A stretch of 64,000 nt of DNA from an uncultured Aminicenantes bacterium (lineage in GTDB: Bacteria; Acidobacteriota; Aminicenantia; UBA2199), in the NCBI GenBank assembly GCA_965195285.1, contig CBDAFS010000040.1, positions 32,791 through 96,790 on the forward strand, given 5' to 3'. Position numbers and translations under genes: made by a program. Positions 25,535-53,278 of this stretch are shown here, in pieces. The first letter of the stretch is position 1. Each line of letters opens with the position of its first letter. Under the pieces are notes generated by a model, which worked only from the letters and a program-made list of their open reading frames with translations, made no database searches and was not told the DNA's origin.

Positions 25535-25598
25535 AATATTCCCCAAAAACATTTCCAAATATTCCTTTAAATATTACTGTGTGTCTGATCATATATCC

Positions 25599-25669
25599 GA
25601 CTAACATTTGAAATAACTGGTTTTGAAAACACACTTTTTTTCAAGATCCGGTTTATTGATTTGTTATGT
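25599..25669 (-). mobile_element. Integron attC site (71 bp)
   Basis: Minus strand: R'' ACATAAC, aaatc, L'' AATAAACCGG, atcTTGAAAA...TTTTCAAaa, CCAGTTATT, tcaaat, R' GTTAGTC. It is an imperfect palindrome with one extra base in L'' and lies 13 nt after the higA stop. Confidence 0.85.
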
Positions 25670-25682
25670 TTTTATTCATGCT

Positions 25683-26006
25683 TCAAACCATCTGCGAGAT
25701 ATCTCCATTTTTTATGCTTAATCTTTTTATCTTTCTGAGTTCTTTTTTCAGTATATTTTTCTTTTCTTCCAGATCATAATGTATCTGTATGTTTATCCAG
25801 AATTCAGGAGAATTGCCAAAATATTTCGAAAATCTAAGAGCGGTATCAACGGAAACACTTCTCTTTCCTTTAATAATTTCACTAACTCTTGTTTGATCTA
25901 TATTCGTTTCTTTGGCTAATCGATAGGCTGTTATGCCCATTGGTTTCAAAAACTCCTCCAATAGTATTTCTCCAGGATGAATGTTAGGCATTTTATTCAT
26001 GATCAC
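25683..26006 (-). CDS. higA: HigA family antitoxin (HTH)
   Basis: IHPGEILLEEFLKPMGITAYRLAK...FWINIQ. The start may be ATG 26000. Confidence 0.95.
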   Translation of the reverse strand: MIMNKMPNIHPGEILLEEFLKPMGITAYRLAKETNIDQTRVSEIIKGKRSVSVDTALRFSKYFGNSPEFWINIQIHYDLEEKKNILKKELRKIKRLSIKNGDISQMV

Positions 26007-26023
26007 CCTCCCATGATATTAGT

Positions 26024-26305
26024 TTAGTGATAATCAGTAACCTCGATTTCATACACATTTCCATTTTTCCATTTAAAACAAATTCTCCACTGATCATTAA
26101 TTCGTATACTGTGTTGTCCCGTACGATCACCATCCAAAGCATGCAGTCGATTCCCTGGTGGAACTCGCAAATCATTTAAGTCAATCGCACTGTGAATCAT
26201 TATTAATTTCCTCCTGGCTGTTCGTTGAATATCGAATGGAATTTTTTTCGAAAATTTACCATTCCAGATCTTTTCAGTTTCCTTATCTTTAAACGAAATT
26301 ATCAC
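26024..26305 (-). CDS. higB: HigB (RelE/ParE superfamily) toxin
   Basis: DLRVPPGNRLHALDGDRTGQHSIRINDQWRICF...DYH; toxin precedes antitoxin. Confidence 0.95.
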   Translation of the reverse strand: MIISFKDKETEKIWNGKFSKKIPFDIQRTARRKLIMIHSAIDLNDLRVPPGNRLHALDGDRTGQHSIRINDQWRICFKWKNGNVYEIEVTDYH

Positions 26306-26311
26306 ATTAAT

Positions 26312-26351
26312 ATAATAGTATTATTAAATAGTATTGTCAAGTAATAGTATT
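26312..26351 (-). promoter_or_regulatory. higBA internal promoter with three AATA-C-TATT palindromic operators
   Basis: TTGACA(26340)-N17-TATTAT, 6 nt before the GTG (leaderless). AATAGTATT occurs at 26314, 26327 and 26343 on the + strand. Confidence 0.75.
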
Positions 26352-26379
26352 TAAAATTTATTTTTAGAATTAAACATAA

Positions 26380-26438
26380 CTATTACTCTACCCACGTAAT
26401 ATTTTTTTTATTATAAAGCTATTTTTTGGGGAAATCAA
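26380..26438 (-). promoter_or_regulatory. Promoter + attI-like platform 1
   Basis: TTGATT-N17-TATAAT, then 29 nt ending in TAATA and the crossover G^TT. Confidence 0.6.
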
Positions 26439-26450
26439 TTAAAACATGAT

Positions 26451-26479
26451 TTGTCTTTTCCCGTATTTCTTTGTATAAT
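26451..26479 (+). promoter_or_regulatory. Sigma70 promoter of serC
   Basis: TTGTCT-N17-TATAAT. Confidence 0.6.
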
Positions 26480-26522
26480 AAATACTTCTGTAAATCTTTA
26501 ACAATTAGGAGGAATTCCGAAC

Positions 26523-27593
26523 ATGTCAACCAAACATAATTTTTATGCCGGCCCCGCCATACTGCCCCATGATGTTTTGAAAAAGGCACAGGAAGAATTG
26601 CTGGATTTCAATGGGAGCGGATTATCCATCATGGAAATCAGTCATCGATCCAAAGATTTCGACCAGGTGGTGACCACAGCCGAGTCCAAAATCAGGAATC
26701 TTTTAGGTGTTCCGGAAAACTATTCGGTTCTGTTCTTACAGGGAGGAGCCAGCCTTCAATTCGGGATGATCCCCATGAATCTGCTGAAAGGTGGAATTGC
26801 CGATTATATCAATACCGGATCCTGGGCCAAGAAAGCCATCAAAGAGGCCAAACTTTTCGGTACGGTCAACATTGCTGCCAGTTCAGAAGATAAAAACTTT
26901 TCTTATATACCCAAAAACATTCACTTTTCACCCGATGCGGTTTACGCCCATATCACCTCCAATGAAACCATCGGGGGCATTCAATGGAAAACATTTCCGG
27001 ATACAGGTAATACACCGTTATTTGTGGATATGTCTTCGGATATTTTCAGCCGGAAACTGACCGTATCCGATTTCGGGATCATCTATGCGGGAGCTCAAAA
27101 GAACATAGGACCTGCCGGCGTTACACTGGTCATTATTCGAAATGATCTGGTTGATTCCGGCGCGGATAACCTGACCTCAATGTTAAGTTTCAAGACCCAC
27201 GTGGACAAACAATCCCTCTACAACACCCCCCCCTGTTTCGGCATTTACATCATCAAGCTGGTGATGGATTGGATCGAACAACAGGGTGGCATTCAGGCCA
27301 TAGAGTCCACCAATGAAAAAAAAGCAGGATTGTTGTACGAAAGCATAGATAATAGCAATTTATATCAGGGAACAGCAGAAGTTCAGGATCGATCTACCAT
27401 GAATGTCACCTTCCGGTTGACCTCGGAGGATCTGGAAAGCCGGTTTATTAAAGAGGCAACCGAAGCCGGATTTATGGGACTCAAAGGCCACCGCAGTGTG
27501 GGCGGCTGCCGGGCCTCAATTTACAATGCCATGCCCCTCGAAGGAGTTGAAAAACTGGTAGAGTTTATGGCCCGGTTTGAGAAAAAACTCTAA
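26523..27593 (+). CDS. serC: 3-phosphoserine aminotransferase
   Basis: NFYAGPA, EISHRS, YAGAQKNIGPAG and GHRSVGGCRASIYNA motifs. Confidence 0.97.
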   Translation: MSTKHNFYAGPAILPHDVLKKAQEELLDFNGSGLSIMEISHRSKDFDQVVTTAESKIRNLLGVPENYSVLFLQGGASLQFGMIPMNLLKGGIADYINTGSWAKKAIKEAKLFGTVNIAASSEDKNFSYIPKNIHFSPDAVYAHITSNETIGGIQWKTFPDTGNTPLFVDMSSDIFSRKLTVSDFGIIYAGAQKNIGPAGVTLVIIRNDLVDSGADNLTSMLSFKTHVDKQSLYNTPPCFGIYIIKLVMDWIEQQGGIQAIESTNEKKAGLLYESIDNSNLYQGTAEVQDRSTMNVTFRLTSEDLESRFIKEATEAGFMGLKGHRSVGGCRASIYNAMPLEGVEKLVEFMARFEKKL

Positions 27594-29095
27594 CTATCAG
27601 CAGGAATAATTTTTTCAAACATTCTTTTTTCTTGTTTTATTGAGTACATATCCACACCTTTTTGCAGATATGAAATCAGAAGATCCACCACTTTGCTATA
27701 GGATGAATGCCCGGGATCTTGGTGATCAAAGCGATAGGCACTGGCCATATAGTTGTTCATCCCGACCGTATAGGTTTTGTCTTCATCCAGTTCATTATTG
27801 CCGGTGGTTTTTAACTCCACCGCCAGCAGCTTTTTTTTCCTGCTGACAATCACCGTGTATTCAAGCCCGGAAACCTGCAAATCCAGGGGCTTAATATGTT
27901 CATAATCAAAACGGATCAAGGACCTGATTTCTTCCAATGTCATTTCAAACAGCACGACCTCATTGTCAAAAGGATCAATCGCATAGACATCCTTCATCCT
28001 GACGGTTTTGAACAACCGATTCAACCGGATTCCGCCGGAATTATAGAAAACCACATCCAGATTAAGCGTGTGCCGGATAGCGTCGGTGATCAGATTGCCC
28101 ATTTCCTTCTTTCCCTGCAACGGTTCCGGAAGCCTGGCAATAATCCGATTCAATTCAGGGTTATCCATAAATTCTTCAATCATTTGTTTAACTTCGGGTG
28201 CTTCGGATTCAATCTGTTTCAAATCGATCAATTCAGCCATTTTTCCGGTCAATTGGCCGTTAACAAAAAGCAATTCGATTCGACCCAGATACTTATTCCT
28301 TGATCCGGCCTGGACAATGAGGACTCCGTTGATTTCACCCGGTTCTTCAATAACCGAATGGGAATGTCCCCCGATAATCAGATCAAGTTCGCCCAAATTC
28401 CGGGCCAATTTCTCATCTTTATAGTAACCCAGATGGGTCAGGGCCACAAACATATCATTATCCTGCCCTATATATCTGTATTTCAGAGCCGTCTCTATTT
28501 CATCAGTGAAAACAATGCCCTCAAAGTGTTTTGGATTGCTGTCCGGAATTTTGGTAGTCCTGGAAATCTGGAGCAATCCCAAAAATGCAATACTCAAGCC
28601 TTCGGCCGTTTTCAGGACCGCAAAGGGTTCTGGCTGGGGGATAATGCCATTTTTAACCTGTATATTGGCACAAATAATTTTAAATTCGGCCCGGGACATG
28701 TAATCTGCCAGAACCTGCTGCCCGTAATCAAATTCATGATTACCCAGTACCTGGAGATCACATCCGACTTTGTTCAGCAGTTTCAGTATGGGTTCTCCTT
28801 TGGGAATATACCGGTCCACATAGGGATTACCGCTGAAATTATCACCGGCGCTGACAAAAAACACATTGGGACATTTTTCCCTCTCCTGATTGATCACACT
28901 GGCAATTTTGGCAAAATTGGCGATTTCACCATGAACATCATTCACATGAAAAATAACCACCCGAACTTCGTTTTTACCGGTCCGGAATAATGGAAATCCG
29001 TCCCGGGAAAAAATCCCGTAAAACAACACCGTCAATACGATCCCGATGGAACCATAAACACCGATTTTTACGTATTTTTTTCGCGTATTTCTCAT
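27590..29095 (-). CDS. Bifunctional metallophosphatase / 5'-nucleotidase (UshA-like)
   Basis: HVNDVHG, AGD, GNHEFDYG, GGHSH and NSGGIR motifs. Confidence 0.92.
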   Translation of the reverse strand: MRNTRKKYVKIGVYGSIGIVLTVLFYGIFSRDGFPLFRTGKNEVRVVIFHVNDVHGEIANFAKIASVINQEREKCPNVFFVSAGDNFSGNPYVDRYIPKGEPILKLLNKVGCDLQVLGNHEFDYGQQVLADYMSRAEFKIICANIQVKNGIIPQPEPFAVLKTAEGLSIAFLGLLQISRTTKIPDSNPKHFEGIVFTDEIETALKYRYIGQDNDMFVALTHLGYYKDEKLARNLGELDLIIGGHSHSVIEEPGEINGVLIVQAGSRNKYLGRIELLFVNGQLTGKMAELIDLKQIESEAPEVKQMIEEFMDNPELNRIIARLPEPLQGKKEMGNLITDAIRHTLNLDVVFYNSGGIRLNRLFKTVRMKDVYAIDPFDNEVVLFEMTLEEIRSLIRFDYEHIKPLDLQVSGLEYTVIVSRKKKLLAVELKTTGNNELDEDKTYTVGMNNYMASAYRFDHQDPGHSSYSKVVDLLISYLQKGVDMYSIKQEKRMFEKIIPADS

Positions 29096-29181
29096 TTGAT
29101 AAAACCCCGGGTTTCACCCTGCAATCGCCGGAGAACCGCCCTGGCGATCTGGTTCAAATAATATATGTTGGTGCTCATTGA

Positions 29182-30159
29182 CTAGGCCTCACATAATATT
29201 TCTTTAAGCCGGGATATACTTATTTTTCGACCGCTTAAAATCAAAACAACATTCTTTTTTTCAAACCTGGCCGGGTCCTTTAAAAAGACCGCAACCGTCA
29301 GCGCACCGGCCCCTTCAACCAGCATATGGTGCCTTTCCAGAATGAGCCGGAGGGCCTCTTTTATTTCATTTTCTGAAACCAGAACCATATCGTCGATCAA
29401 TCGCTGACAGAGATTAAAGGTAATGGCACCGGGTTCGATTCCCCCGGCCGTACCATCGGAAATGGTCGGTTTCGAATCCATGCTGATGATTTTTCCTGCC
29501 TTGATTGATTCAAACATGACCGCTGAGTTTTCAGGCTGGCAACCGATGGTCTCAATATGCTTATCGATCGATTTCAGATAACCGGCTATCCCTGAAATCA
29601 ATCCGCCGCCGCCCACCGGCACCAGAACCGTATCAATTTTCCTGCCCGGGTATAGGACATCCATCTGGTACTTGATCTCGACCCCTACGGTTCCCTGACC
29701 GTCAATGATATGGAGATCATTATAAGGGGATATGAAAACTTCACCTCGCTTGGCTGCGCTATCTCTGGCAAAACACTCTGCCTGCACACAATCGTTGCCG
29801 TAAAATTCAACCTCGGTTCCCCAGTAACACAATGCGTCCACTTTGGCCGGGGAGGCATTCTCAGGAAGGATGATTCGGCCCCGGGCGCCAAAAATTTTGG
29901 TTAAATAGGCAAAGGCATTCCCATGATTTCCCGAGGATGCGGTGACCAGGCCGCGCCTCAATTCAGAGGCCTTCAATGAGAGCAATTTGTTTGCAGCTCC
30001 CCGCAGCTTGAAAGATCCGGTTGTTTGAAAATTTTCACATTTGAGACAAACGTTGCAATGGCCTAATTCTCCCAGATAGGGCGAGGGTTCCAGGGGAGTT
30101 TCTCTGACATATCGACTGATTTTTTTTTGGGCGTTCAAAACTGCTTTTTTTTGGTCCAT
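29182..30159 (-). CDS. Threonine/serine dehydratase (PLP-dependent)
   Basis: KCENFQTTGSFKLRGA, SSGNHG and VGGGGLISG motifs. Confidence 0.92.
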   Translation of the reverse strand: MDQKKAVLNAQKKISRYVRETPLEPSPYLGELGHCNVCLKCENFQTTGSFKLRGAANKLLSLKASELRRGLVTASSGNHGNAFAYLTKIFGARGRIILPENASPAKVDALCYWGTEVEFYGNDCVQAECFARDSAAKRGEVFISPYNDLHIIDGQGTVGVEIKYQMDVLYPGRKIDTVLVPVGGGGLISGIAGYLKSIDKHIETIGCQPENSAVMFESIKAGKIISMDSKPTISDGTAGGIEPGAITFNLCQRLIDDMVLVSENEIKEALRLILERHHMLVEGAGALTVAVFLKDPARFEKKNVVLILSGRKISISRLKEILCEA

Positions 30160-30194
30160 TATTTCAAACCTGTAAATTTTCTAATTCAAAGACC

Positions 30195-31778
30195 TCATTC
30201 CGGATCACAAATCTCCACAATGGCCGGACGGCTTTCCTCTCCGGTACTTTTGATTGCAACCACCGCATAAACATACTTATTCCCTTTATCCACACCCCGG
30301 TGAAAAAATTCATGATCATTCAGGTCAAGATCATGAAGCCAGGTAAAGCCCTCCTGTCGGAGCAGATAGATACGGTAGCCATAGACTTCTTTTCCCTCAT
30401 TCAGGGGATTGATATCCCAGTTTAAAACATTAATATATTCGGTCATCAATAACGATTGATTCTCCTGCATACTTCCATTCAAATGCAACGGGGGATATAT
30501 ATCCCTTTCTCCGGATAACATGACCATCAGGGGATCTCCCAAAACCGTCATGCCATAATGCCAGAACACATCATAAATATCATAAGGGGCTATTCTTTCA
30601 AACCACTCTTTCAATGCGGTTCCCACCGGATTCCGGGCGCCTAATGATTGATAAAAAAACCGGAATTCCAGCATTGAACCTGTTTTCGTACTTCCTACCA
30701 CCGAAAGGGCTTTCCGCCCCTGGTTGAAGATATAACTGGTGCCCAGACAATTGTAATCGGTATAACGCAGGGCACTGCAACAAAAAAGATTATAACTCAA
30801 ACCCAGCGGGGGGGCATTTCTGATCTGATTGCTGGTGAGCAGCCCGTTTCGAACAAAATGATGAGCACTCGAACTCGAATGGCAGGCCAGCTGAATATAT
30901 TCATATTTTACATTTTTCAATCGGTTGTCCAGATAATCATTTCGATCCGTAGCCGGGGCAGAAATAGCCTCATAATTATTGGCATAGAGATATGAAATAT
31001 CATTCAGCATATCACCGTATATACTCCAATCATCTTCCGTATAGGTCAACCCATACTGATGCACATAGATATTTCCGCTCCAATATTCATGGTTCTTATC
31101 AAAATAGCGGTTCAGGATCTCAATTTCATCCCCCTCCATCCGGGACCCGTCAATCCGGCCGATAAAAATCTCCGGCATCCGATCCCCGCCTCCATCCTGG
31201 TGAAGATCAAATCTTTCGTTCCCATCCGTATCCCGCCACTGTCCGTCAAGGTCCATAAAAAACAAATCACAGGGGAATTCTGCATATCCGTATTCATAAA
31301 AATCATCCTCTATCTCATACCATGCAACCGGAAAATCCCCGATAAAAACACATCCGCTCAGATTCTGCTTTCTGGAAATGATAAAAGATCTCAAATTCAC
31401 CGGGGTTCCCCCTGAATACTCAACCAAGGCCACTTCATAGCCCTGATGATTGAGATCCATACCATAACGGAGTATCTTCTCATGAAGCCCTGAAAAAACC
31501 CGGGGATTCACCAGAATCAATACCTTTTTGGTTTCCGTCGGCAGGTTCATATACCGGTTCAATGCCGGGCGTAGAACCTGCAATTCCTTTACCCGCACCG
31601 GTTTGTTCGCCTGACCGGCCAAATACTCCTCATAGGTCCCGGGCCTCCCGGGTCCCATCCATTTCAGCAGGGGAATACCCGCCTTATCAACTGCAGTAGA
31701 GGACAGTAAAATGCCTTCAATAAAAATAACCAGGAGTAAAAACCAGGGTAGTTTAAAAAGCTTTTTCAGTCGATTCAT
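30195..31778 (-). CDS. Secreted peptidase C25 (gingipain)-like protein with a C-terminal FN3-like domain
   Basis: VFIGDFP, PEIFIGRI, ACHS (His), LFCCS (Cys) and VLGDP motifs. ATG 31778 follows GAGG. Confidence 0.75.
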   Translation of the reverse strand: MNRLKKLFKLPWFLLLVIFIEGILLSSTAVDKAGIPLLKWMGPGRPGTYEEYLAGQANKPVRVKELQVLRPALNRYMNLPTETKKVLILVNPRVFSGLHEKILRYGMDLNHQGYEVALVEYSGGTPVNLRSFIISRKQNLSGCVFIGDFPVAWYEIEDDFYEYGYAEFPCDLFFMDLDGQWRDTDGNERFDLHQDGGGDRMPEIFIGRIDGSRMEGDEIEILNRYFDKNHEYWSGNIYVHQYGLTYTEDDWSIYGDMLNDISYLYANNYEAISAPATDRNDYLDNRLKNVKYEYIQLACHSSSSAHHFVRNGLLTSNQIRNAPPLGLSYNLFCCSALRYTDYNCLGTSYIFNQGRKALSVVGSTKTGSMLEFRFFYQSLGARNPVGTALKEWFERIAPYDIYDVFWHYGMTVLGDPLMVMLSGERDIYPPLHLNGSMQENQSLLMTEYINVLNWDINPLNEGKEVYGYRIYLLRQEGFTWLHDLDLNDHEFFHRGVDKGNKYVYAVVAIKSTGEESRPAIVEICDPE

Positions 31779-31973
31779 TGAATCCTCTCGGGATCTTGTA
31801 ACTGAAAGAAATAAAAATACTCTGAAGCCTAAAACCAGATTATAACAATTTACCCACAATTTTCATAGCACTTTAAGATGAGAATTGTCATTTTAATGGC
31901 GGTTTTTATTTAAAATATTCAGGTCAAACTGATATAATTGAATCAACCCAGATGGATTGTTCGAGGAGGAAAT

Positions 31974-33011
31974 ATGGGATATAAAGGAATTTCTGATTTT
32001 AGAAGCGATACGGTAACCAGGCCCACTGAAGCCATGAGAAAGGCCATGTACAATGCCGAGGTGGGAGACGATGTCCATGGAGATGATCCAAGCGCGATTG
32101 AACTCGAAGCCCGGGCAGCCAAAAAGCTCGGAAAAGAAGCCGCTCTCTTTGTTCCCTCCGGAACCATGGGCAATACCATTGCCATGATTTTAGCTGTAGG
32201 AGAAGGGAAAGTTGTCATCATGGAGGAGAAATGTCATATTTTCAATTTCGAATCCGGCAATGTCTCACGACTGGCCAAGAGTCTTCCCAGGGTTTTACCA
32301 TCCGACCGGGGTAAAATCCCGCTGGATCTGCTGGAGGCCAATATCCCGGGTGACGCTCTCAGGGAACACATCCCGGAAACCCGGGCTATTGCCCTGGAAA
32401 ACACCCATAATATCTGGGGAGGCGCAGTCCTGGATATTGATTATATGAAAAGTGTTTATGCCCTGGCCCGGCAACACCGGCTACACCTGCATCTTGATGG
32501 AGCCCGAATCTTCAATGCCGCTACCACCCTGAAAGTAGAGGCCAGAGAGATTGCCCGGTACTGTGATTCGGTTATGTTCTGCCTATCCAAAGGACTGGCT
32601 GCACCGATAGGTTCTATTTTAGCCGGATCCGGGGATTTTATCAGCGAGGCCCGGAAAATCCGGAAATATCTGGGAGGAGGCATGCGTCAGGTGGGCATCA
32701 TCGCCGCCGCCGGCCTGGTGGCTATAGAACAGATGATTTCCCGCCTTGAAGAGGATCATATAAGAGCAAAGAAGTTAGCCGAGTCAATTTCTGATATCCA
32801 TGATATTGAGGTTCATCCGGAACAAACCGTAACCAATTTCGTCATGATCAGGATCAAAACCATGGATTCCATGACTTTTTTAAATAAATGTAGTCAGGAA
32901 AAGGTTCTGGCCCTGCCCTATACCGATAACCTGGTCAGATTTGTCACCCATAAGGACATTGACGATCAGGATATTGATACCGCCATCAGAACCATTCAGG
33001 ATATTTTTTAG
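31974..33011 (+). CDS. ltaE: Low-specificity L-threonine aldolase
   Basis: DFRSDTVT, SGTMGN, LENTHN, HLDGARIFNA and CLSKGL motifs. Confidence 0.94.
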   Translation: MGYKGISDFRSDTVTRPTEAMRKAMYNAEVGDDVHGDDPSAIELEARAAKKLGKEAALFVPSGTMGNTIAMILAVGEGKVVIMEEKCHIFNFESGNVSRLAKSLPRVLPSDRGKIPLDLLEANIPGDALREHIPETRAIALENTHNIWGGAVLDIDYMKSVYALARQHRLHLHLDGARIFNAATTLKVEAREIARYCDSVMFCLSKGLAAPIGSILAGSGDFISEARKIRKYLGGGMRQVGIIAAAGLVAIEQMISRLEEDHIRAKKLAESISDIHDIEVHPEQTVTNFVMIRIKTMDSMTFLNKCSQEKVLALPYTDNLVRFVTHKDIDDQDIDTAIRTIQDIF

Positions 33012-33053
33012 TTCGGCATTTCCAATTCAACAAATCCTTAATAACATTGGATT

Positions 33054-33093
33054 TTAACCGAATCTTAATCGTTTATTCATTATAAATTCATAT
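33054..33093 (+). promoter_or_regulatory. Putative Pho box upstream of phoB
   Basis: TTAACCG, TTAATCG, TTCATTA and TTCATAT at exact 11-bp spacing. Confidence 0.6.
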
Positions 33094-33166
33094 TATTCAA
33101 TACAATATAGATTAAGGGAATAATGAAGTGTTTGACTAAAAAATACAAATTTGATATTAAAACAGC

Positions 33167-33889
33167 ATGACCGGTAACAAGACCAACAAGCCCGATATAT
33201 CAAAAAAACCTTTGGTGGCGGTTATCGATGATGAAAACGACATTCTGGAACTGGTTTCCATTAATCTGGAGAAAGGCGGATTCAGCAAGGAAACATTTTT
33301 GGCTGCTCAGCCATTTTTTAATTTCTTAAAAACCAACACACCTGATCTGATTATACTGGATCTCATGCTTCCCGATATACAAGGGCTGGAGGTCTGCAAA
33401 ATATTGAAACAAAATTCCGAATGGCGTCAGATTCCCATACTCATGTTAACCGCCCTCGGTGATGAAACCGATGTGGTACTGGGTCTTGAATTGGGGGCTG
33501 ACGACTACATGGTTAAACCTTTCTCAGTCAAAGAATTACTTGCCCGGGTAAAAGCCATACTCAGAAGAAATGAAGACCCGGGATCACCGAAAACCAACAA
33601 AATCATCATCAATGACATTTTAAGCATTGATGCCGATCGCCATGAAGTTTTTGTCAGAGATAAACAGGTTTTGCTGACTAAAACCGAGTTTACCATATTA
33701 ACCGCCCTGGCTAAAAAAATCGGCTGGGTCTACTCCAGAGAAAAATTAATGACACTCCTGTGGGGAGATGAAAAGTTTATCATCGACAGAACCATAGATG
33801 TTCATATCAAAAACCTGCGGGATAAGCTGGAGGATGCAGGTTCATGGATCAAGAGCATCAGGGGAGTAGGGTATAAACTGGAACCGTGA
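33167..33889 (+). CDS. phoB: OmpR-family response regulator (PhoB/PhoP)
   Basis: LDLMLP, GADDYMVKPF, RTIDVHIKNLR and IRGVGY motifs; pho gene context. Confidence 0.88.
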   Translation: MTGNKTNKPDISKKPLVAVIDDENDILELVSINLEKGGFSKETFLAAQPFFNFLKTNTPDLIILDLMLPDIQGLEVCKILKQNSEWRQIPILMLTALGDETDVVLGLELGADDYMVKPFSVKELLARVKAILRRNEDPGSPKTNKIIINDILSIDADRHEVFVRDKQVLLTKTEFTILTALAKKIGWVYSREKLMTLLWGDEKFIIDRTIDVHIKNLRDKLEDAGSWIKSIRGVGYKLEP

Positions 33890-35610
33890 AGAAATCCATT
33901 TTTTTCAAATCCTTCTGGTGGTTTTTACTCATCACCATTGTGGTTTCACTGATCATTGTTTTCTATTCCGTCAATGTGATCAAGAAATGGAACGAGCAAA
34001 CCCTCACTGAAGAACTTCATAAAATCGCCCTGTCGTTAAAGCCCTCCATCCAGCAGTACATTTATCAACAGAACGACCAACTGGATCTTTTTATAAAAAA
34101 TTCGGGACATGACCTTGAAGTCCGGATTACGGTTATTGCACCGGACGGAAAGGTAATGGCGGATTCACTGTCAGATCCGGAATCCATGGAAAACCACAGC
34201 GACAGACCTGAAATCATCAAAGCCCTTCAGGGATTGAAGTTCAAGAATTTTCGATTCAGCTCAACCTTGAGATCCAATATGCTCTATCTGGCCATCCCTC
34301 TGAAGCAGGAGGATACCATTGTTGGTGTATTGAGGACCAGTATGTTTGTTCAGGATATCAGATCACTCAGCCGGAATATCCGAAACCAAATTTTCGGTAT
34401 GGCTGCCATCATGCTACTACTCTCGTTAGTCGTTATATTCCTGGTGTCAAAATCAATTTCCACACCCATAAGCAAAATAGTGGAAGCATCCAGAAAGGTA
34501 TCGCAGGGAGATTATAATGTCCGGGTTTTCAGCAAGGACAAAGGGGAAATCGGAGAACTGACCCAGAGCTTTAACGAGATGGTGAAGCGTCAACAGCAAT
34601 TATTCACCAAAATTTCCAATAGCCGGGAGGAACTTCAAACCATTGTCGGTTCCATCAAGGAAGGATTGCTGGTTGTGGATCAGGAAGGAAAAATCCTGTT
34701 AACCAATAAAAGTTTCGATCAAATAACAGGAACCACACACCCCGAAGGTAAAAAATACTGGGAAGTCTGCCGGAATACTGATTTTTATGATTTTATGCAG
34801 AAATCCATCGTGGAAAAAACCAATACCACCGGACAGCTTGAGATCAATGGCAAAACCTACATAACCAGTTTTAACTTTTTGATTTCACTTCAAAGAGTGG
34901 TCATCACCTTTCATGATATATCTGAAATTAAGCAGCTTGAAACCATAAAGAGAGACTTTATCACCAATGTTTCTCATGAACTGAAAACACCCCTTACCTC
35001 TATAAAGGGATTTGTGGAAACACTGGAAGCGGAGAGCAGTGAAAACAACCAGAAATACCTGACCATAATAAAAAGAAATACCGACCGATTGATCAATATT
35101 GTTAATGACCTGCTGCTGTTAACCCGCCTTGAGGATAAGGTTTTAAGCAAGGAGAAACAGAACGTTAATATCAAGCATTTATTGGATTCCATTATACCTC
35201 TTTTTGAACCCATGCTAAAAAAGAAAAATCTGGATTTCACTCTTAACGCTGCTGAAGGACTGCCTTCCATACAGGGAGATGCCTTCAAATTAGAAGATAT
35301 GTTTGTCAACCTGCTGGATAATGCCATCAAGTATACCGAAAAGGGCGGTATTACCATCCGGCTTTCAACAGAAGAGCAGTGGCTTCGCTGTGATATCAAG
35401 GACACCGGAATAGGCATCCCGGGAAAACATCTTGACCGAATCTTCGAACGGTTCTTTGTCCTGGATCCCTCACGGTCAAAAACAACCGGTGGTACCGGGC
35501 TCGGTCTTTCCATTGTCAAGCACATTGTCCTGATGCATAAGGGAACCATTGAAGTCAGCAGTACGGTCAATAAAGGAACCACCTTTACCATTCGTTTGCC
35601 GATATCCTGA
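33886..35610 (+). CDS. phoR: Phosphate sensor histidine kinase (HAMP-PAS-HisKA-HATPase)
   Basis: MENHSDRPEI, NVSHELKTPLTSIKG, NLLDNAIKY and GGTGLGL motifs. Confidence 0.92.
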   Translation: MKKSIFFKSFWWFLLITIVVSLIIVFYSVNVIKKWNEQTLTEELHKIALSLKPSIQQYIYQQNDQLDLFIKNSGHDLEVRITVIAPDGKVMADSLSDPESMENHSDRPEIIKALQGLKFKNFRFSSTLRSNMLYLAIPLKQEDTIVGVLRTSMFVQDIRSLSRNIRNQIFGMAAIMLLLSLVVIFLVSKSISTPISKIVEASRKVSQGDYNVRVFSKDKGEIGELTQSFNEMVKRQQQLFTKISNSREELQTIVGSIKEGLLVVDQEGKILLTNKSFDQITGTTHPEGKKYWEVCRNTDFYDFMQKSIVEKTNTTGQLEINGKTYITSFNFLISLQRVVITFHDISEIKQLETIKRDFITNVSHELKTPLTSIKGFVETLEAESSENNQKYLTIIKRNTDRLINIVNDLLLLTRLEDKVLSKEKQNVNIKHLLDSIIPLFEPMLKKKNLDFTLNAAEGLPSIQGDAFKLEDMFVNLLDNAIKYTEKGGITIRLSTEEQWLRCDIKDTGIGIPGKHLDRIFERFFVLDPSRSKTTGGTGLGLSIVKHIVLMHKGTIEVSSTVNKGTTFTIRLPIS

Positions 35611-35697
35611 CATCGGTTTAAAAAGTATGAAAACTCAGTTAAAAACAAAGTATACCAAGAAAAATCAAGATTATTATTCGGAATCGAACCATTCAAA

Positions 35698-35737
35698 TTA
35701 ACCAAGAATTAACACAATTTTTATTCTCAATTAATAA
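35698..35737 (+). promoter_or_regulatory. Putative Pho box upstream of the porin
   Basis: TTAACCA, TTAACAC, TTTATTC and TTAATAA at 11-bp spacing. Confidence 0.7.
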
Positions 35738-35777
35738 TTATGCAATAAACTACCACCATACCAAATCAGGAGGTAAA

Positions 35778-36827
35778 ATGATTAAAAATCTTAGAAAATT
35801 TGTTCTGTCTTTATTGCTCATTGTCTGGACACTGTCGAATGTCGCCTACGCCGAAGAAAGCACAACCAGTGGTAAAATTCACGGGTATGCCATTCCCGAG
35901 TATTACTATGTCGGAGGCCATCACACCGATGGTGCTGAAGAAGGAGACATCACCGGACAGCATGGTTTCTGGTTCAGAAGGGTGTACCTGGGGTACGACT
36001 TCAAATTCGATGGCTACACCTTCCGGGTAAGATTAGAAGGCAACAGCCCTGCTTTTGAAGAGAGTACGGTGGGTCCCTTTGTAAAAGATCTCTACCTAAA
36101 GAAAAAAATCGGAGATAGCAACACCCTGCAGTTAGGAATCTATTCTCCCCCCAGCTTTGATAAGATCGAAAAATTCTGGGGATATCGCCACATCGAAAAA
36201 ACCGCTCTCGATCTCTTCAAGCTGGTTTCCTCCCGCGACACCGGTATTGGGATTAGTGGTGGAAAAAATTTCATCTATACCATCATGTATGCCAATTTCG
36301 GTTCCAATAAAGGAGAGGATAACGAGGGCAAGGGTTTCTTCGGTCGTCTTGGTTACAAAACCGATACCCTCTATCTGGAGGCCAATGGTTTCATTGCTGC
36401 CGATGGTTCCAAAGATTATACCCTGTTCCAGGGTTTTGCCGGAATCAAGGGTAAGTGGGGTAATGTTGGCCTTAATTACGCCTACAAGAACCAGGCTGAA
36501 AAAGAAAAAGATGACAAAAACACCAGTTTGATTTCAGCCTTCGGTCACGTCAAAATCAGTAAAAAAACCACTATCGTACTCCGCTACGACCATTTCCTGG
36601 ATGTAAACCTCAAAGAAGCCACCGGTTATATTCCCTTTGCATCCACCATTGCTCCTGCCCGTTTTCTAATCGCCGGGATCGATATCAAGATCAACAAATG
36701 GTTTCAATTCGGTCCCAACATCAAGTATGCTTTTTACGGCGATCCTGTCGAAGCCGGTGTTGAAAAACCGGGTTCTGATTTTTATATCAACCTGACCGGA
36801 AAAATCAAGTTCGAAAGCAAGTTATAA
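35778..36827 (+). CDS. Outer-membrane porin, probably phosphate-selective (OprO/P-like)
   Basis: Signal peptide, FWFRRVYLGY, SSRDTG, amphipathic beta strands; Pho box and phoBR context. Confidence 0.72.
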   Translation: MIKNLRKFVLSLLLIVWTLSNVAYAEESTTSGKIHGYAIPEYYYVGGHHTDGAEEGDITGQHGFWFRRVYLGYDFKFDGYTFRVRLEGNSPAFEESTVGPFVKDLYLKKKIGDSNTLQLGIYSPPSFDKIEKFWGYRHIEKTALDLFKLVSSRDTGIGISGGKNFIYTIMYANFGSNKGEDNEGKGFFGRLGYKTDTLYLEANGFIAADGSKDYTLFQGFAGIKGKWGNVGLNYAYKNQAEKEKDDKNTSLISAFGHVKISKKTTIVLRYDHFLDVNLKEATGYIPFASTIAPARFLIAGIDIKINKWFQFGPNIKYAFYGDPVEAGVEKPGSDFYINLTGKIKFESKL

Positions 36828-36845
36828 TCATTCCGAATAAGTAAC

Positions 36846-36878
36846 AAAAAGGGAGGATGCTTTCATCCTCCCTTTTTT
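36846..36878. terminator. Bidirectional rho-independent terminator
   Basis: AAAAAGGGAGGATG-CTTT-CATCCTCCCTTTTTT. Confidence 0.9.
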
Positions 36879-36904
36879 ATTATTCAATTTCTTCCCCTAT
36901 TAGC

Positions 36905-37003
36905 TTATTTGGCCTTCATTGGCGCCTTAAACACATTGGTCGAAAGCCATTCAATCAGGATTCCATACCCGATACCAGCAGTAGTATACAGGAAGAACCC
37001 CAG
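36905..37003 (-). pseudogene. Possible 3' fragment of a membrane-protein gene
   Basis: Startless frame LGFFLYTTAGIGYGILIEWLSTNVFKAPMKAK* directly after the DUF2179 stop. Confidence 0.3.
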
Positions 37004-37004
37004 G

Positions 37005-37604
37005 CTATTTCGCCTTTCTAGCTCCAATCAGTGCAGAGAGTCTTGGTCGCCACCGATTATCAGTAGAAGAGAAGATACCCCCAGAAACGAAGCGGATATC
37101 CTCGACTGTGTAGAATGCTCGGGGATTAAAGCGTCTGATATGGTTAGTCACGAAAGGCAATTGGGAACGCCTGATTACGGTAAATAGCAAATGCACTGGG
37201 CCACTAGAACCCTCTGCATTGACCACGGTGACACTAAAGTTCTCGTTTCTCAGGAAGACGATCAACTTTGAGGCATCGCGATGTGTAATCACTTGGACTA
37301 AAACCTTACCCATGGCAAGTTTCTGCTCAAGGGTAATACCAATGTAGTTGCCTATGGCAAAGCCAAGTGCGTAGGCGAAATAGTTCGCAACATTGGTTAG
37401 ATTCTGCATGACCTGGCCAATTGCAAGCAACCAAAGCATGATTTCGAAGAATCCGAGGATTGGAGCAACTACTTTCATACTCCTGGAAACAAAAATGATG
37501 CGCAACGTGCCTAAGGACACATCGATAATTCTTGCAAGACAGATGAGAAGTGGAACAATCGCCCAGGTGAAGACGGGAGAGTGTACAAAATCGTGCATGA
37601 TCAT
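37005..37604 (-). CDS. DUF2179/UPF0316 family membrane protein
   Basis: ARIIDVSLGTLRII, GFFE, YALGFAIGNYIG and NPRAFYTVED motifs. Confidence 0.9.
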   Translation of the reverse strand: MIMHDFVHSPVFTWAIVPLLICLARIIDVSLGTLRIIFVSRSMKVVAPILGFFEIMLWLLAIGQVMQNLTNVANYFAYALGFAIGNYIGITLEQKLAMGKVLVQVITHRDASKLIVFLRNENFSVTVVNAEGSSGPVHLLFTVIRRSQLPFVTNHIRRFNPRAFYTVEDIRFVSGGIFSSTDNRWRPRLSALIGARKAK

Positions 37605-37625
37605 TTCCGCCTATAAATTGAGGTC

Positions 37626-37691
37626 TAACTATTAATAAACATCAATATATATTTTATTAAAATAAGAGAGAAATATCAAATAAAATTGATT
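37626..37691 (-). repeat. 66-bp direct repeat copy A: promoter + attI-like platform 2
   Basis: 60/66 identical to 38561-38626. Contains TTGATA-N17-TAAAAT and ends TTAATA-G^TTAGAC, a canonical GTTRRRY core. Confidence 0.85.
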
Positions 37692-37739
37692 GTGTACAAA
37701 ATTAAGGACAGATTGTTAATTTATTAATTTTAAGAAAAT

Positions 37740-37772
37740 GCACAGTCCCCCTTTTTGATCCCATTGTTATAC
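37740..37772 (-). mobile_element. Left half of a truncated attC
   Basis: GTATAAC-AATGG-GATCAAAAAGGGGGACTGTG. The R'' contains the racemase stop, and AAAAGTATAAC complements GTTATACTTTT at the cassette start. Confidence 0.65.
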
Positions 37773-38462
37773 TTTTTCAATTGCAATTCTTAATGCCGCT
37801 CGTGCAAGCAGCCGAGTAGAATCCAATGTTGGCAAGGGGCAATCATCTGGATTGACTATTAACGGAATTTCCGTACATCCAAGAATAGCCGCATCACATC
37901 CGCGTTCTTTAAGCTTTTGTATGACTTCATTAAAATATCGTCTGGATTTTTCAGTTAATATACGGTTTACAAGTTCATTAAATATGATCTTATCAATCTG
38001 TTCTCGATCATTTTCACCTGGTATTTCATATGAAATGTCTAATTTGTCCAAAGTCCTTGGATAGACAGGCCCAACCATCAGATATTTTGTTCCCAAGATG
38101 GCAAGTTTTGAAAATCCATTCTTTTGGGCTTCTTCAGCCACCGCTTCAGCAATATGCAGCCAAGGTATAGGCGACTTTTCGGTGACGAATTCAAAGGCTT
38201 GATGGATAGTGTTGTCGGGGCAAATAGCAAATTTTGCTCCTATTTCGAAAACTTTTTTGACCGATGATAACATGAGTTCAGCAACGTCTTTCCAGTTGCC
38301 GGCACGGATATGCACCATGTATTCCCCAAGTGGATGAGTATGCATGCTTATTTCGGGGTGCATGTGTTTACCCATTTGAAGCGGGGCTTCTGCGCATATA
38401 GATCGATAACAGAGGGCTGCCCCTTCTGCACTACATGCTACGATTCCGATATGTTTTGCCAC
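37767..38462 (-). CDS. Aspartate/glutamate racemase family protein (RacX/YgeA-like), cassette-borne
   Basis: ICPDNTIH, IPWLHI and ILGCTEIPL motifs. GTG start follows AAGGAG. Confidence 0.9.
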   Translation of the reverse strand: MAKHIGIVACSAEGAALCYRSICAEAPLQMGKHMHPEISMHTHPLGEYMVHIRAGNWKDVAELMLSSVKKVFEIGAKFAICPDNTIHQAFEFVTEKSPIPWLHIAEAVAEEAQKNGFSKLAILGTKYLMVGPVYPRTLDKLDISYEIPGENDREQIDKIIFNELVNRILTEKSRRYFNEVIQKLKERGCDAAILGCTEIPLIVNPDDCPLPTLDSTRLLARAALRIAIEKV

Positions 38463-38484
38463 AGCAATTCTCCTTTCTTAAAAA

Positions 38485-38563
38485 GTATAACATCGCAAAC
38501 CAACAGCAGTAATTTATCAAAATCGTCTGTGGCGCATTCGCAGTATATCATTTTCACAGTTAA
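38485..38563 (-). mobile_element. Degenerate attC-like remnant or empty mini-cassette ending in core site GTTATAC
   Basis: GCCACAG...CTGTTGG partial stem, then TTTGCGAT-G^TTATAC. Confidence 0.45.
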
Positions 38564-38626
38564 CTATTAATAAACATCGGTATATATTTTATTGAAATAT
38601 GAGAAAAATATCAAAAAAAAATTGAT
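38561..38626 (-). repeat. 66-bp direct repeat copy B: promoter + attI-like platform 3
   Basis: TTGATA-N17-TAAAAT, 21 nt, then G^TTAAC. Identity with copy A stops immediately after GTTA. Confidence 0.85.
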
Positions 38627-38781
38627 TTTGGATGTCTACAACAGGTCTATAATTCCCAGGGATCTTCCAAAACTTCTAATAATCCCTAGATGGTAATCTC
38701 TTCGTTGATATTAATAATTATTTTTAGTAAAATCATAATTTCATGTTCTTTGATGGCTGATGGGTTAAATCTAGATATGTA

Positions 38782-39777
38782 ATGATGATTAAGAAAAACC
38801 GGGTACTGGTAACGGGCGCAACAGGGTTTGTAGGAAGTAACCTTGTGAAGGAATTGGCAGAGAGAGGATGCAAGACAATCTGCCTTGTTCGTCCTGGGGA
38901 AAGTATCGATCTATTTGAGGATATAAAGTGTGAAATTGTTTTCGGAGATATTATTGAAAAAAAATCCCTGGTAGAAACCATACCAGATGTTGAATATATC
39001 TTTCACCTGGCAGCGGTGTTGGGTAGCCATGATTCCGACACCATGTTTAAGACAAATTTTGTGGGTACCAAAAACCTGGCAGAGGTCTGTCTGGAAAAAA
39101 AATTACCTATTAAGCGGTTTTTATTCGTATCAAGTACAGCTGCAGTGGGCCCTACGGATAAAAATGAGTTGTTGGATGAGACGGCACCATGCAACCCATT
39201 AACCGCGTACGGTAAGAGTAAATTATGCGCAGAAAATTATCTTGACTCCCTCTGTGACAGCTTGCCTGTTACCATCGTAAGATTGCCTTTGGTATATGGG
39301 CCCAGGAGTCAGGGGGGCATATACATCATGTTTAAATTAGCAAAAAAACGGATTCAAATTGATTTGGGCTATGGTGAAACCAATGTCTGTTTTGTAGATG
39401 ATGCTGTAAACGGAATGATTCGGGCAGCTGAAAATGAGAATGCGATTGGCAAAACCTATTTTCTCGGGGAAAATAACATTTATTCCATTCCTCAGATTTA
39501 CAAGATCGTTTCTAAAATTATGGGGAAACGGTCGATCAAAATCAAAGTTCCCTATTTTCTGAGCTATTCCCTTGCCTATCTGTTGGAACTATATGGAAAA
39601 TTTAAAAATACCGTTCCAATTTTCAGCAGGGATGAGCTGGCATCCTATTGTAAGCATCCTTACTGGCGCTTTAATACCCAGGAATCAGAAAAAGACTTTG
39701 GTTTTCAGGCCCGCTACCCGCTGGAAAAAGGTGTCCAGATTACTGCAGACTGGTATAAAAAAAATGGTTTTCTATAG
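38782..39777 (+). CDS. NAD-dependent epimerase/dehydratase (extended SDR)
   Basis: TGATGFVG, HLAA, YGKSK and VYGP motifs. Confidence 0.92.
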   Translation: MMIKKNRVLVTGATGFVGSNLVKELAERGCKTICLVRPGESIDLFEDIKCEIVFGDIIEKKSLVETIPDVEYIFHLAAVLGSHDSDTMFKTNFVGTKNLAEVCLEKKLPIKRFLFVSSTAAVGPTDKNELLDETAPCNPLTAYGKSKLCAENYLDSLCDSLPVTIVRLPLVYGPRSQGGIYIMFKLAKKRIQIDLGYGETNVCFVDDAVNGMIRAAENENAIGKTYFLGENNIYSIPQIYKIVSKIMGKRSIKIKVPYFLSYSLAYLLELYGKFKNTVPIFSRDELASYCKHPYWRFNTQESEKDFGFQARYPLEKGVQITADWYKKNGFL

Positions 39778-39834
39778 ATCTATGGATAGGCTGAAAAATA
39801 GAAAAAGAGTTGGGCTATTTTCCACAGGTTAAAG

Positions 39835-41547
39835 GTGGATAAAAGAATTCCTAAATTGTTCTTGGTTTTTGCCCTCTTTGCCGCTGCAGTGATCGGCAGC
39901 CCTCTGGATGAATCCATATTGAAAAAGAACCTTTTTATAGTGGATATTTTCATAAAAGATTTTCATTTAAGCCTGGATGCAATTCCGGAGGATCCTCATA
40001 ACATTAAAGATTCCTCAACATTGGTGCCATCTGATGGGTCATCGGAGAAATCCAGCAAACAGGCAATAAGGACCCAGAACCACCCAAAAAAGAATAAAAA
40101 AAGGTTCAGCCGGGCTCTTATTATCACCTCGACTTTTATCCTCCTGGATTCCATCCGTTATTGGATCGAGGCCGAATGGGTGGAGGATTGGCAGTACAAA
40201 CTGAGTTGGAAGGATCAAAAAATTCGGTTTTTTAGCCTCGAAGCCAATCGGTTCGATTCCAACCCCTATATCACCAACTGGAGTCATATTATCCCCGGTG
40301 GTTGTTACTATAGTTTTGCCCGATACTATCGATTAAACAGGCTGGAGTCTACACTTTTCAGTACCGGATGTTCCCTGTTTTGGGAGTATGTCACCGAATG
40401 GCGGGAAGTTATCTCCATAAACGATAACATTTTCAGCGGGATAGGCGGCCTAATATTGGGAGAACCACTTTTCCAAATTGCCAGTTACTACAACCATCGA
40501 CCTGGTTTTTTTAATAAAGTTCTCCAAACTATCTTTAATCCGATTATCACACTCAATAATCTATTGGGAGGCAAAAAAAAAGATCCCGGATATAAACCAT
40601 CGACTTCTTCAAAACCTTGTTCGAAATTGTATGTCGGGAACAAAGAGGTCACTTATGAAGGCATTGAAAATCCCGTATCCAGCCTTATCAATGTTGGATT
40701 TGAAACCCAATTCAATACCATTGTTGATTATGGCGCCTCCGGAAAAACCAGCGGATTTGTCAAAGATACGATGCTAAACCAAGTAATGTTTGATCTTTCC
40801 TTTGGGTCTGAAGGTGTTGAAGAGTATAGTATATATGTCGGATCTGTTTTATTCGGATATTTTGATCAAAAATTGAACCAGGAGTCTCCATTAAATAACA
40901 AGGGATACAGTCTCTTTTTAGGATTGGGAACTGGATTCGATTTTTTCAAGAAAAGAAGTACTGCTCCCTATGATAAAGGTGCGTTTCATTTTGATTTTAC
41001 TTCTGACGTAACCCTGGATCAACCCACCGAATTTACCGATAAATATGCGATACTAAATTTATTTGGACCTGTTTTTGATATTTGTGTTCAGGACTCATCA
41101 TTTAAATTTGCCTTTCGTGTGGGGGCCTACCTGGATTTTGCTCTGGTGAATGCCATTGCATTGAATGAATATACGGTGGATCATGACCTTTACGAACAGA
41201 GAATGAAGACAACTTTATCCTATTATGGTTATTATTATGCGTTGGGTTTCACCATTTCCAGTGGTATTGAGATGTCCTATAGAAATGTCGGTATCGAGGG
41301 AAAATTGGGGTACCATTATTTTGATTCCGTTGAAGGGCGTGACCGGTATCAGCATGATTTGGAAGATGATTGTACGGTAAGAGATTCCCGGTTTTTATAC
41401 CGGCTCAGTGTGGGTTATTCGTTTTCAAAGATACCGGTAAAACTCCAGTTATCGCTGGAAGGCATTGAAAGACGCGGGATCATAAAGGAGTTCACTCACT
41501 GTGAAAAGGAAACCCGATTGGTCAGCCAGATCATCTTTTCATTTTAA
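39835..41547 (+). CDS. DUF3943-like outer-membrane beta-barrel protein
   Basis: Signal peptide; FDSNPYITNWSH...YYSFAR...SLFWEYVTE...SINDNI; C-terminal Phe. Confidence 0.72.
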   Translation: MDKRIPKLFLVFALFAAAVIGSPLDESILKKNLFIVDIFIKDFHLSLDAIPEDPHNIKDSSTLVPSDGSSEKSSKQAIRTQNHPKKNKKRFSRALIITSTFILLDSIRYWIEAEWVEDWQYKLSWKDQKIRFFSLEANRFDSNPYITNWSHIIPGGCYYSFARYYRLNRLESTLFSTGCSLFWEYVTEWREVISINDNIFSGIGGLILGEPLFQIASYYNHRPGFFNKVLQTIFNPIITLNNLLGGKKKDPGYKPSTSSKPCSKLYVGNKEVTYEGIENPVSSLINVGFETQFNTIVDYGASGKTSGFVKDTMLNQVMFDLSFGSEGVEEYSIYVGSVLFGYFDQKLNQESPLNNKGYSLFLGLGTGFDFFKKRSTAPYDKGAFHFDFTSDVTLDQPTEFTDKYAILNLFGPVFDICVQDSSFKFAFRVGAYLDFALVNAIALNEYTVDHDLYEQRMKTTLSYYGYYYALGFTISSGIEMSYRNVGIEGKLGYHYFDSVEGRDRYQHDLEDDCTVRDSRFLYRLSVGYSFSKIPVKLQLSLEGIERRGIIKEFTHCEKETRLVSQIIFSF

Positions 41548-41629
41548 GCAGAGTAATCGGAATAAACGAGACCTACGCAAATACCACGGTGGGAAAAGAA
41601 GTAGAAGGTTTGATCATGTGTTCATTTGG

Positions 41630-51374: not shown

Positions 51375-51378
51375 ATTA

Positions 51379-51978: not shown

Positions 51979-51981
51979 CGG

Positions 51982-52107
51982 TTAAAACCTCTGCATTCCA
52001 ATTACGGGACAATCCGGATCCGATTCAATCCCGGATTTGATTGATCCAATTGTTAAAAACACCATCAGTAAAAATATGAAAAGCCAAATTAACATTTTGT
52101 TGATCAT
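51982..52107 (-). CDS. Putative 41-aa single-TM small protein
   Basis: MINKMLIWLFIFLLMVFLTIGSIKSGIESDPDCPVIGMQRF*. It has a GAGGG RBS and fills the gap between the ECF promoter and the sigma gene. Confidence 0.45.
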   Translation of the reverse strand: MINKMLIWLFIFLLMVFLTIGSIKSGIESDPDCPVIGMQRF

Positions 52108-52142
52108 TGAAGACCCTCTGTTTTCACCTTCTTTCTAAATAG

Positions 52143-52170
52143 ATAACGCAGGTAATACCCAAAAGGTTTG
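52143..52170 (-). promoter_or_regulatory. Putative ECF-type autoregulatory promoter CAAACC-N16-CGTTAT
   Basis: AAC...CGT signature with a 16-nt spacer upstream of the ECF operon. Confidence 0.6.
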
Positions 52171-52212
52171 CAAGGAAAATGATTATATTCAGTTAGATTT
52201 CAGATAACATCA

Positions 52213-53232: not shown

Positions 53233-53278
53233 TAATTCTCCTTGGGGAATTCTTTACAAATGATATTTAGAAAAAAAC

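Follow-up and report, generated by a model that had tools for sequence, protein, structure and literature searches.

Three promoter-like sites in the Aminicenantes window fall into two repeat families

The 64-kb stretch of DNA analysed here (hereafter the window) is part of contig C40 of a metagenome-assembled genome (MAG) of an uncultured Aminicenantes bacterium from sediment (G000; 3.28 Mb in 62 contigs, 42% GC, 95% complete). On its minus strand we identified three short sites, each combining a sigma70-type promoter sequence with a candidate integron recombination site, and each followed by a small gene unit: a higBA toxin-antitoxin pair, an Asp/Glu racemase gene or a gene for a DUF5698/DUF2179 membrane protein. 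Ordinary genes lie around these sites, including those for a helicase, a class-V aminotransferase and a two-component system. All three sites share the layout TTGAT(A/T)-N17-TA(T/A)AAT, which scores 10/12 in a promoter scan of the 12 hexamer positions, followed after 21-29 nt by TAATAG^TT (^ marks the putative crossover). The crossover G would fall at 26380 (site 1), 37629 (site 2) and 38564 (site 3).

26380..26443, minus strand: F2 module (site 1); -35 TTGATT 26438-26433, -10 TATAAT 26415-26410, G 26380 / TT 26379-26378
38564..38626, minus strand: F1 module copy a (F1a; site 3, upstream of the racemase gene); -35 38614-38609, -10 38591-38586, G 38564 / TT 38563-38562
37629..37691, minus strand: F1 module copy b (F1b; site 2, upstream of the DUF2179 gene); -35 37679-37674, -10 37656-37651, G 37629 / TT 37628-37627

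Sites 2 (37626-37691) and 3 (38561-38626), which form repeat family D9, match at 90% of positions over 60 nt, and their similarity stops after GTTA. Both this near-identity and the shared layout had been noted in a preliminary description of this DNA and are confirmed, except that the three sites, there treated as a single motif, separate into two families. A profile search with sites 2 and 3 recovered exactly 13 genome copies of the first family, F1 (E <= 7e-5; next match E 2.7), with F1b (37629-37691) as the reference copy, and did not retrieve site 1. The latter belongs to a second family, F2, comprising three copies: site 1, one on contig C60 (87% over 77 nt) and one on contig C35 (90% over 50 nt). 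Common to both families are only the promoter layout and the 9-nt end TAATAGTTA.

An alignment of 29 non-identical F1 copies, taken from G000 and its relatives, revealed identities of 80-99% from the -35 hexamer to TAATAGTTA, which then fall at once to about 40-50%, the genes behind these copies being unrelated to one another. The best-conserved stretch extends from the -10 hexamer to GTTA. Beyond the 13 matches in G000, we identified 2-5 in each of three fragmentary congeners (G001, G002 and G003; 70-91% complete) and one in G013, a member of another genus of the same bacterial family. The F1 core was also found in MAGs with the record titles Candidatus Aminicenantes and Acidobacteriota, and a metagenome scan returned three short contigs for the F1 pattern and 0 matches for the F2 pattern.

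Promoter-like hexamers alone were no more frequent than expected by chance in AT-rich DNA (7 versus 5.1 expected; 9 versus 6.5 expected), nor was the word TAATAGTT enriched genome-wide (95 versus 87 expected). The 66-bp module, by contrast, recurs beyond what chance would give and ends abruptly on its 3' side; the promoter pattern precedes TAATAGTT at 8 of 10 F sites versus 1 of 85 other sites. Combining TAATAGTT with the promoter pattern to look for a third module family identified none. The modules lack a hairpin (folding z -0.29 to +0.56 versus shuffled sequences; values of -0.29, 0.02, 0.56 and -0.32, with 0.02 for F1a and +0.56 for F2 at site 1), which suggests attI-like rather than attC-like behaviour. 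At the 5' edge, a conserved boundary motif or a G^TT was considered and discarded as inconsistent, the window F2 having ATG^TTTT and the G002 copy lacking it. An Rfam scan of window positions 24000-41000 gave only sub-threshold chance matches.

A higBA cassette at site 1 is replaced by other cargo in related genomes

Behind the F2 module at site 1 lies a cassette consisting of higB (Pfam HigB-like_toxin, 1.2e-19) and higA (HTH_3, 2.3e-10), and ending in an attC site.

25674..26379, minus strand: higBA cassette; higB 26024-26305, higA 25683-26006
25595..25673, minus strand: higBA attC; R'' CATAAC, R' G^TTAGTC

To detect attC sites we used two covariance models seeded from the attC sites of an array on C60, R1 being built without the higBA attC and R2 trained with it. 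These models replaced earlier hairpin scans, of which a crude AAC...GTT version was too noisy and a stricter one found some attC sites and missed others. The higBA attC scored 20.4 bits with R1 (E 0.007), the sole window match below E 0.1, and 61.6 bits with R2. In agreement with the preliminary description, the complement of its R'' box corresponds to the cassette start for 9 nt. With the sole attC of the 64-kb window and no intI on the contig, higBA and its attC fit the definition of a single attC site lacking an integrase (SALIN).

Comparison of the orthologous locus, which lies between the same aminotransferase and helicase genes in relatives, revealed a module starting 85 bp from the conserved divergent aminotransferase gene in three genomes of the genus, with different cargo. 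In G003 (95% identity) F2 is kept and a Ser/Thr kinase gene follows TAATAG^TTAGAC, similarity to the window stopping at 26377. In G002 (80% identity) the position is occupied by an F1 module, joined as F1^TTATGT to a gene for a CPBP-like membrane protein, which is followed by an attC directly against the end of the helicase gene. G001 has no module at this locus and a different neighbour. We also compared contigs of other samples from public sequencing runs X6 and X9, together with two metatranscriptome libraries. A fourth allele, F2^TTATACT with unread sequence behind it, was present higher up the locus in run X9, and contigs of both runs carried the higBA cassette (90-97% identity) behind a different, GC-rich sequence, similarity breaking exactly at G 26380. 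F2-like modules occur in further contexts among the public-run contigs. Alleles and contexts thus part at the G of the G^TT in a GTTRRRY-type box, and the expectation that related genomes would hold differently loaded sites is borne out by G003 and G002, and among other samples by run X9.

Given that cargo differs between congeners behind the same module position, recombination would have taken place after the module was in place, which would require an integrase from somewhere; insertion would thus have continued after any local integrase was lost. Site 1 is, on this comparison, an apparent docking site that has been used, consisting of an F2 module with a captured higBA cassette.

Two further observations concern this locus. 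One X6 contig joins window position 25641, on the helicase side, to 26503, on the aminotransferase side, skipping 861 bp with 62 unread letters between, and is without F2 and higBA; this module-less form, which may be an empty site or another allele, has apparently retained the attC's 3' half. Contigs of the two RNA libraries cover higBA (25578-26346) at 100% identity, where DNA carry-over is possible.

Modules of both families adjoin integrase remnants

Searches of G000 yielded no intact intI, with no match to TIGR02249 (integron integrase) above its cut-off of 265 bits; the best was a 98-bit C-terminal fragment on C60. Of the integrase, this remnant keeps about 54-60 residues of the N terminus and 63 of the C terminus, in different reading frames, corresponding to an internal deletion. 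The C-terminal piece (TIGR02249 98-101 bits; 98 over 62 positions) has integron integrase as its top rank in NCBIfam and shares 65-73% identity with five bona fide IntI of related genomes and 47% with a sixth, against identities of 35-60% to the Xer-like recombinases of G000. No other IntI-like matches were found in G000, and none on the window contig C40. With no intact intI in the assembly, no complete integron was recovered from G000.

Closer inspection of C60 identified an F2 module about 100-170 bp upstream of the deleted intI and divergent from it, in which TAATAG^TTAGG is followed by at least four open reading frames (ORFs), each with an attC behind it. G013 (locus L045/L031) has an N-terminal intI remnant interrupted by a frameshift (TIGR02249 75.8 bits, residues 2-75), with a divergently oriented F1 module about 240 nt upstream of it. 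The C60 F2 and the G013 F1 modules therefore occupy the position of attI, divergent from intI and between it and the first cassette. The other 15 of the 16 copies in G000, including all three window sites, do not. Since each family adjoins an intI remnant in the canonical position in some genome of the bacterial family, F1 and F2 both appear to be platform sequences that join a cassette promoter (Pc) to attI.

Two further gene neighbourhoods were recorded. The intI remnant of G013 is immediately followed, at its point of truncation, by a VapBC-like toxin-antitoxin pair (L045 4322-4986). On C43 of G000 (50851-54410), an F1 module leads a 67-aa ORF and an 823-aa ATPase-like ORF, and 3 kb upstream of this module is a gene for a 368-aa phage-type tyrosine recombinase, which scores about 50 bits and does not resemble IntI; the region may be a defence or mobile island.

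A homogeneous attC family accompanies some of the modules

With the covariance models we identified 11 distinct attC sites in G000, on C60, C13, C6, C56 and C40; two more on C60 were read by eye and have weak model scores. In a 10-site alignment 89.7% of pair cells were paired, versus 19-48% when partners were slid, and four pairs had changed on both sides (compensatory changes). Four attC sites lie behind the C60 intI remnant, so that this locus holds an array of cassettes each ending in attC.

The order F1, gene or genes, then attC was observed at five loci (C56:3024, C60:28267, G002:C246, G002:C220 and L044), with a sixth case, C60:895, seen by eye only. At C60:28267 three genes precede the attC, and the unit lies beyond the intI remnant. 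A 108-aa gene on C35 has an F2 module behind it, at the place where its homologue in another MAG (L044), itself led by an F1 module, carries an attC. Across seven units, the cassette start complements its own R'' box for 9, 7, 6, 4, 7, 8 and 4 nt. Complementarity of at least 7 nt was found in 4 of 7 own pairs versus 8 of 42 mismatched pairs (mismatched mean 5.2 nt). As the attC family is homogeneous, this complementarity gives modest support.

The C60 unit (C60:28267-31570; L017 2268-5571) comprises F1, a methyltransferase gene, a gene for a 432-aa protein of unknown function, an N-formylglutamate amidohydrolase gene and then the attC, and is situated on the 3' side of the deleted intI, opposite the main array. 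A second cassette cluster was identified at C13:1-2800 (L048), with attC sites at 573-699 and 1420-1498, two toxin-antitoxin-like cassettes possessing their own promoters, and a paralogue of the window racemase gene just upstream. The opposite end of C13 has a further two attC sites (19572 and 21864).

Sites 2 and 3 lie in an accessory island

The two F1 copies of the window lead units that differ from the higBA cassette in their constitution.

37767..38491, minus strand: Asp/Glu racemase unit; gene 37767-38462 (Pfam Asp_Glu_race, 1.1e-28)
37005..37604, minus strand: DUF5698/DUF2179 membrane-protein gene (Pfam assignment); start 24 nt after the F1b G
36880..41620, no strand assigned: accessory island of 4.8 kb, boundaries approximate; both F1 units, an epimerase gene and a DUF3943 gene

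The racemase unit has cassette-like ends, G^TTATACTTTTT at 38491-38480 being matched, in a 12-nt inverted repeat, by its complement AAAAAGTATAAC at 37777-37766, which overlaps the stop codon. F1a and F1b bracket the gene in direct orientation, in an attI-ORF-attI layout. An orthologue in G001 (72% amino-acid identity) lies elsewhere, without an F1 module. The DUF2179 gene ends before a bidirectional terminator (36846-36877, terminator scan), and a search of five related genomes recovered a single homologue, in G001, that is 32% identical. The island is absent from the syntenic contig of G001, where 257 bp separate the orthologues of 35778-36827 from those of 41630-42298.

The preliminary description had listed cassette hallmarks behind all three sites. 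The racemase inverted repeat and the 24-nt spacing of the DUF2179 start were recovered as described, as was the higBA attC; behind the racemase and DUF2179 genes there is none. Neither unit is thus an attC-bounded cassette, the racemase keeping an R''-like box only. Two derivations from attC were discarded: F1 as the 3' half of a long attC beginning at the racemase R'' box (a 150-nt fold was no better than shuffled sequences, z -0.05), and a short attC within the 70 nt that separate F1a from GTTATAC (neither model matched). We read sites 2 and 3 as platform modules of the same kind as site 1, and we infer that the racemase and DUF2179 cargo was brought in by integrase action.

Between the racemase stop codon and F1b (37706-37730, minus strand) we observed an AT-rich word of 20-25 nt whose last hexamer resembles TTAACA/TTGACA. 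The same word, at 96-100% identity, is intergenic at C15:118533-118557, C45:10638-10659, C24:3509-3533 and C12:113538-113557, giving five copies in all, and may be another reused promoter or UP-element module. Elsewhere in the window (1180-3110), dense repeats with a 27-nt period (families D1-D4 and D7) lie within one long frame that resembles a gene for a repeat-domain protein.

Interpretation of the modules and alternative explanations

What is observed here comprises the copy families, the sharp G^TT edge, an attC family, adjacency to intI remnants, and differing cassettes at one orthologous module. Together these features suggest that the repeats of about 66 bp are probably integron platform modules, in which a sigma70-type promoter (the equivalent of Pc) is fused to a double-stranded attI-type site. 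Crossover would take place within TAATAG^TTA, at the G^TT that follows the -10 hexamer by 21-29 nt, so an inserted cassette would be transcribed with a short leader. The modules would have multiplied in the genus and now stand without an integrase alongside (15 of 16 in G000); their promoters would fire, IntI would recognise them, and it would have acted in trans to load the cassettes. The modules might have spread in the form of attI-type (delta-attI-like) cassettes, or else through exchange between attI sites (attI x attI). A broader and more tentative proposal, to which we give somewhat less credence than we withhold, is that the promoter-attI module is self-propagating and detached from its integrase, so that the chromosome acts as a distributed integron of 16 or more independently expressed slots served in trans by a transient or mobile-element integrase. 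The preliminary description had likewise envisaged a Pc-attI unit multiplied and scattered among housekeeping genes; its multiplication, separation from an integrase and loading with cassettes are upheld, whereas sites 2 and 3 are in an accessory island and not among housekeeping genes.

Several results weigh against the platform interpretation. An L box like that of attI1 (an inverted TAAC) could not be recognised in the modules on reading their sequences alongside the description of attI1 in the available part of PMC12901181, and their 5' edges are ragged. Activity of the Pc promoters is predicted only, from 10/12 consensus matches; the RNA contigs at site 1 cannot show a transcript start, and higBA has its own promoter-like site within the cassette (26340-26312, TTGACA-17-TATTAT, 11/12). 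Modelled attC sites lie behind only 2 of the 13 F1 copies in G000, plus one read by eye, and the searches behind the racemase and DUF2179 genes returned none with R1 or R2, even with filters off. The complementarity of R'' boxes to cassette starts is modestly above the mismatched control (p about 0.03, an estimate). Although F2 does adjoin the C60 remnant, as expected were the attI beside intI to match the motif, no intact intI was identified in G000 (95% complete) or in the three congeners (70-91%); given that these MAGs are 70-95% complete, absence from the genus is not established. Intact intI above the cut-off was found in 5 of 72 genomes of the bacterial family, and no F-like module stands beside an intact intI at six loci (five family genomes and one class-level genome). 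It is well recognised that attI sites differ much between integron classes, and the last result is therefore unsurprising.

An alternative is that F1 and F2 represent a propagated strong promoter with a conserved leader, whose link to cassettes is incidental and reflects insertions at attG sites (GTT/GWT) kept behind a resident promoter. Ten of the 13 F1 copies in G000 lack a downstream attC, and the best-conserved stretch, from the -10 hexamer to GTTA, could equally serve transcription or a 5' leader. Similar upstream regions before unrelated genes have already been described (PMC3575422, in the part available), as have insertions at non-att GWT sites expressed from nearby promoters (10.1101/2022.09.11.507474, likewise in part). 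We nevertheless consider this explanation unlikely, for each family is found next to an intI remnant, where Pc-attI canonically lies, two otherwise unrelated promoter sequences have just the 9-nt TAATAGTTA in common, and cargo switches at one and the same nucleotide across several genomes and samples, which a diffuse attG landscape would not predict. Alternatively, each module could be all that is left of an independent integron that decayed and lost its integrase by deletion, or a rearranged piece of an array, with neither multiplication of the unit nor action in trans. That both module-adjacent intI genes are remnants would fit such decay, as would the common reading of clusters of attC sites lacking integrases (CALINs) as decayed integrons (10.1101/2022.09.11.507474, part available). 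This appears less likely still: the IntI-like remnant of G000 is confined to C60, leaving the other 15 modules without one nearby; the site 1 module lies 85 bp from the conserved aminotransferase gene in three congeners and is followed by different cargo nonetheless; and a single F1 copy in G013 compares with 13 in G000.

The multi-copy nature of the 66-bp repeat, its sharp 3' edge and its outward-facing promoter would also suit the end of an insertion sequence (IS) or a miniature inverted-repeat transposable element (MITE), with GTTA as terminal repeat or target-site duplication, a possibility that the preliminary description had named as fatal to its own proposal. It is very improbable, as the repeat has no inverted partner or hairpin, its 5' edge is ragged without a target duplication, Pfam scans of neighbouring genes in the window and on C60 returned no transposase, and the breakpoint coincides with the boundaries of attC cassettes. 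Platform modules, in the sense of a Pc-like promoter joined to an attI-type site, hence remain the reading that we favour.

Relation to known systems

By definition an integron has one platform, consisting of intI, attI and Pc, and expression is confined to the cassettes close to this one promoter. Cassettes of CALINs and SALINs are usually read as debris or as random insertions at GTT; here the promoter-attI part itself appears to be multi-copy and in use, and a genome with many such platforms could express many captured cassettes at once. We found no published description of dispersed multi-copy attI-promoter modules, which is weak evidence given partial coverage of the literature, and an integron variant with dispersed platforms that lack an integrase would appear to be new. 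Tools anchored on intI and attC would miss such docking sites. With two attI families, one attC family and natural alleles, these genomes offer a testable system with bearing on attI recognition and on the evolution of platforms in uncultured phyla. The modules may also give a concrete route for what have been termed mobile promoters.

Sedentary chromosomal integrons provide the closest parallel. They share with the present loci a promoter directed into a double-stranded attI, a crossover at the G^TT of a GTTRRRY-like box and attC-bounded cassettes inserted there, and C60 reproduces their order of intI (as a remnant), divergent Pc/attI and cassette array with homogeneous attC sites. They differ in that G000 has 16 Pc-attI copies in two families, 15 of them without a nearby integrase, that its sole intI is internally deleted, and that no L box is recognisable. 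Furthermore, the promoter lies wholly within the module of about 66 bp, 21-29 nt from the crossover.

The higBA cassette and its attC resemble the SALINs, CALINs and attG insertions treated by Loot et al. (10.1101/2022.09.11.507474, available in part), being a single cassette behind a promoter with no integrase nearby. Unlike the insertions described in that part of the work, the cassette is preceded by a putative copy of the integron's own Pc-attI sequence and not by an arbitrary GWT site, and relatives hold other cassettes there. Cassettes of the delta-attI type, with an attI1-ORF-attI1 structure, have been described as rare variants in class 1 and class 2 arrays of clinical bacteria, beside an active intI (PMC12901181, in the portion available). 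As in those, an attI-derived site would stand in place of attC 3' of the gene, both for the racemase gene with F1b and for the C35 108-aa gene with F2, and an R'' box persists at the stop codon of the racemase gene, a feature also of one type described in that portion. In contrast to what is given there, the attI-type sites of G000, known from sequence, carry a full promoter, are chromosomal and dispersed, and outnumber the canonical site. Finally, the putative mobile promoters of PMC3575422 (available in part) are likewise highly similar upstream regions found before unrelated genes within and between genomes. No general mechanism is offered for them in the part available, whereas here the 3' edge coincides with the putative integron crossover and the repeated sequence appears to be that of an integron platform.

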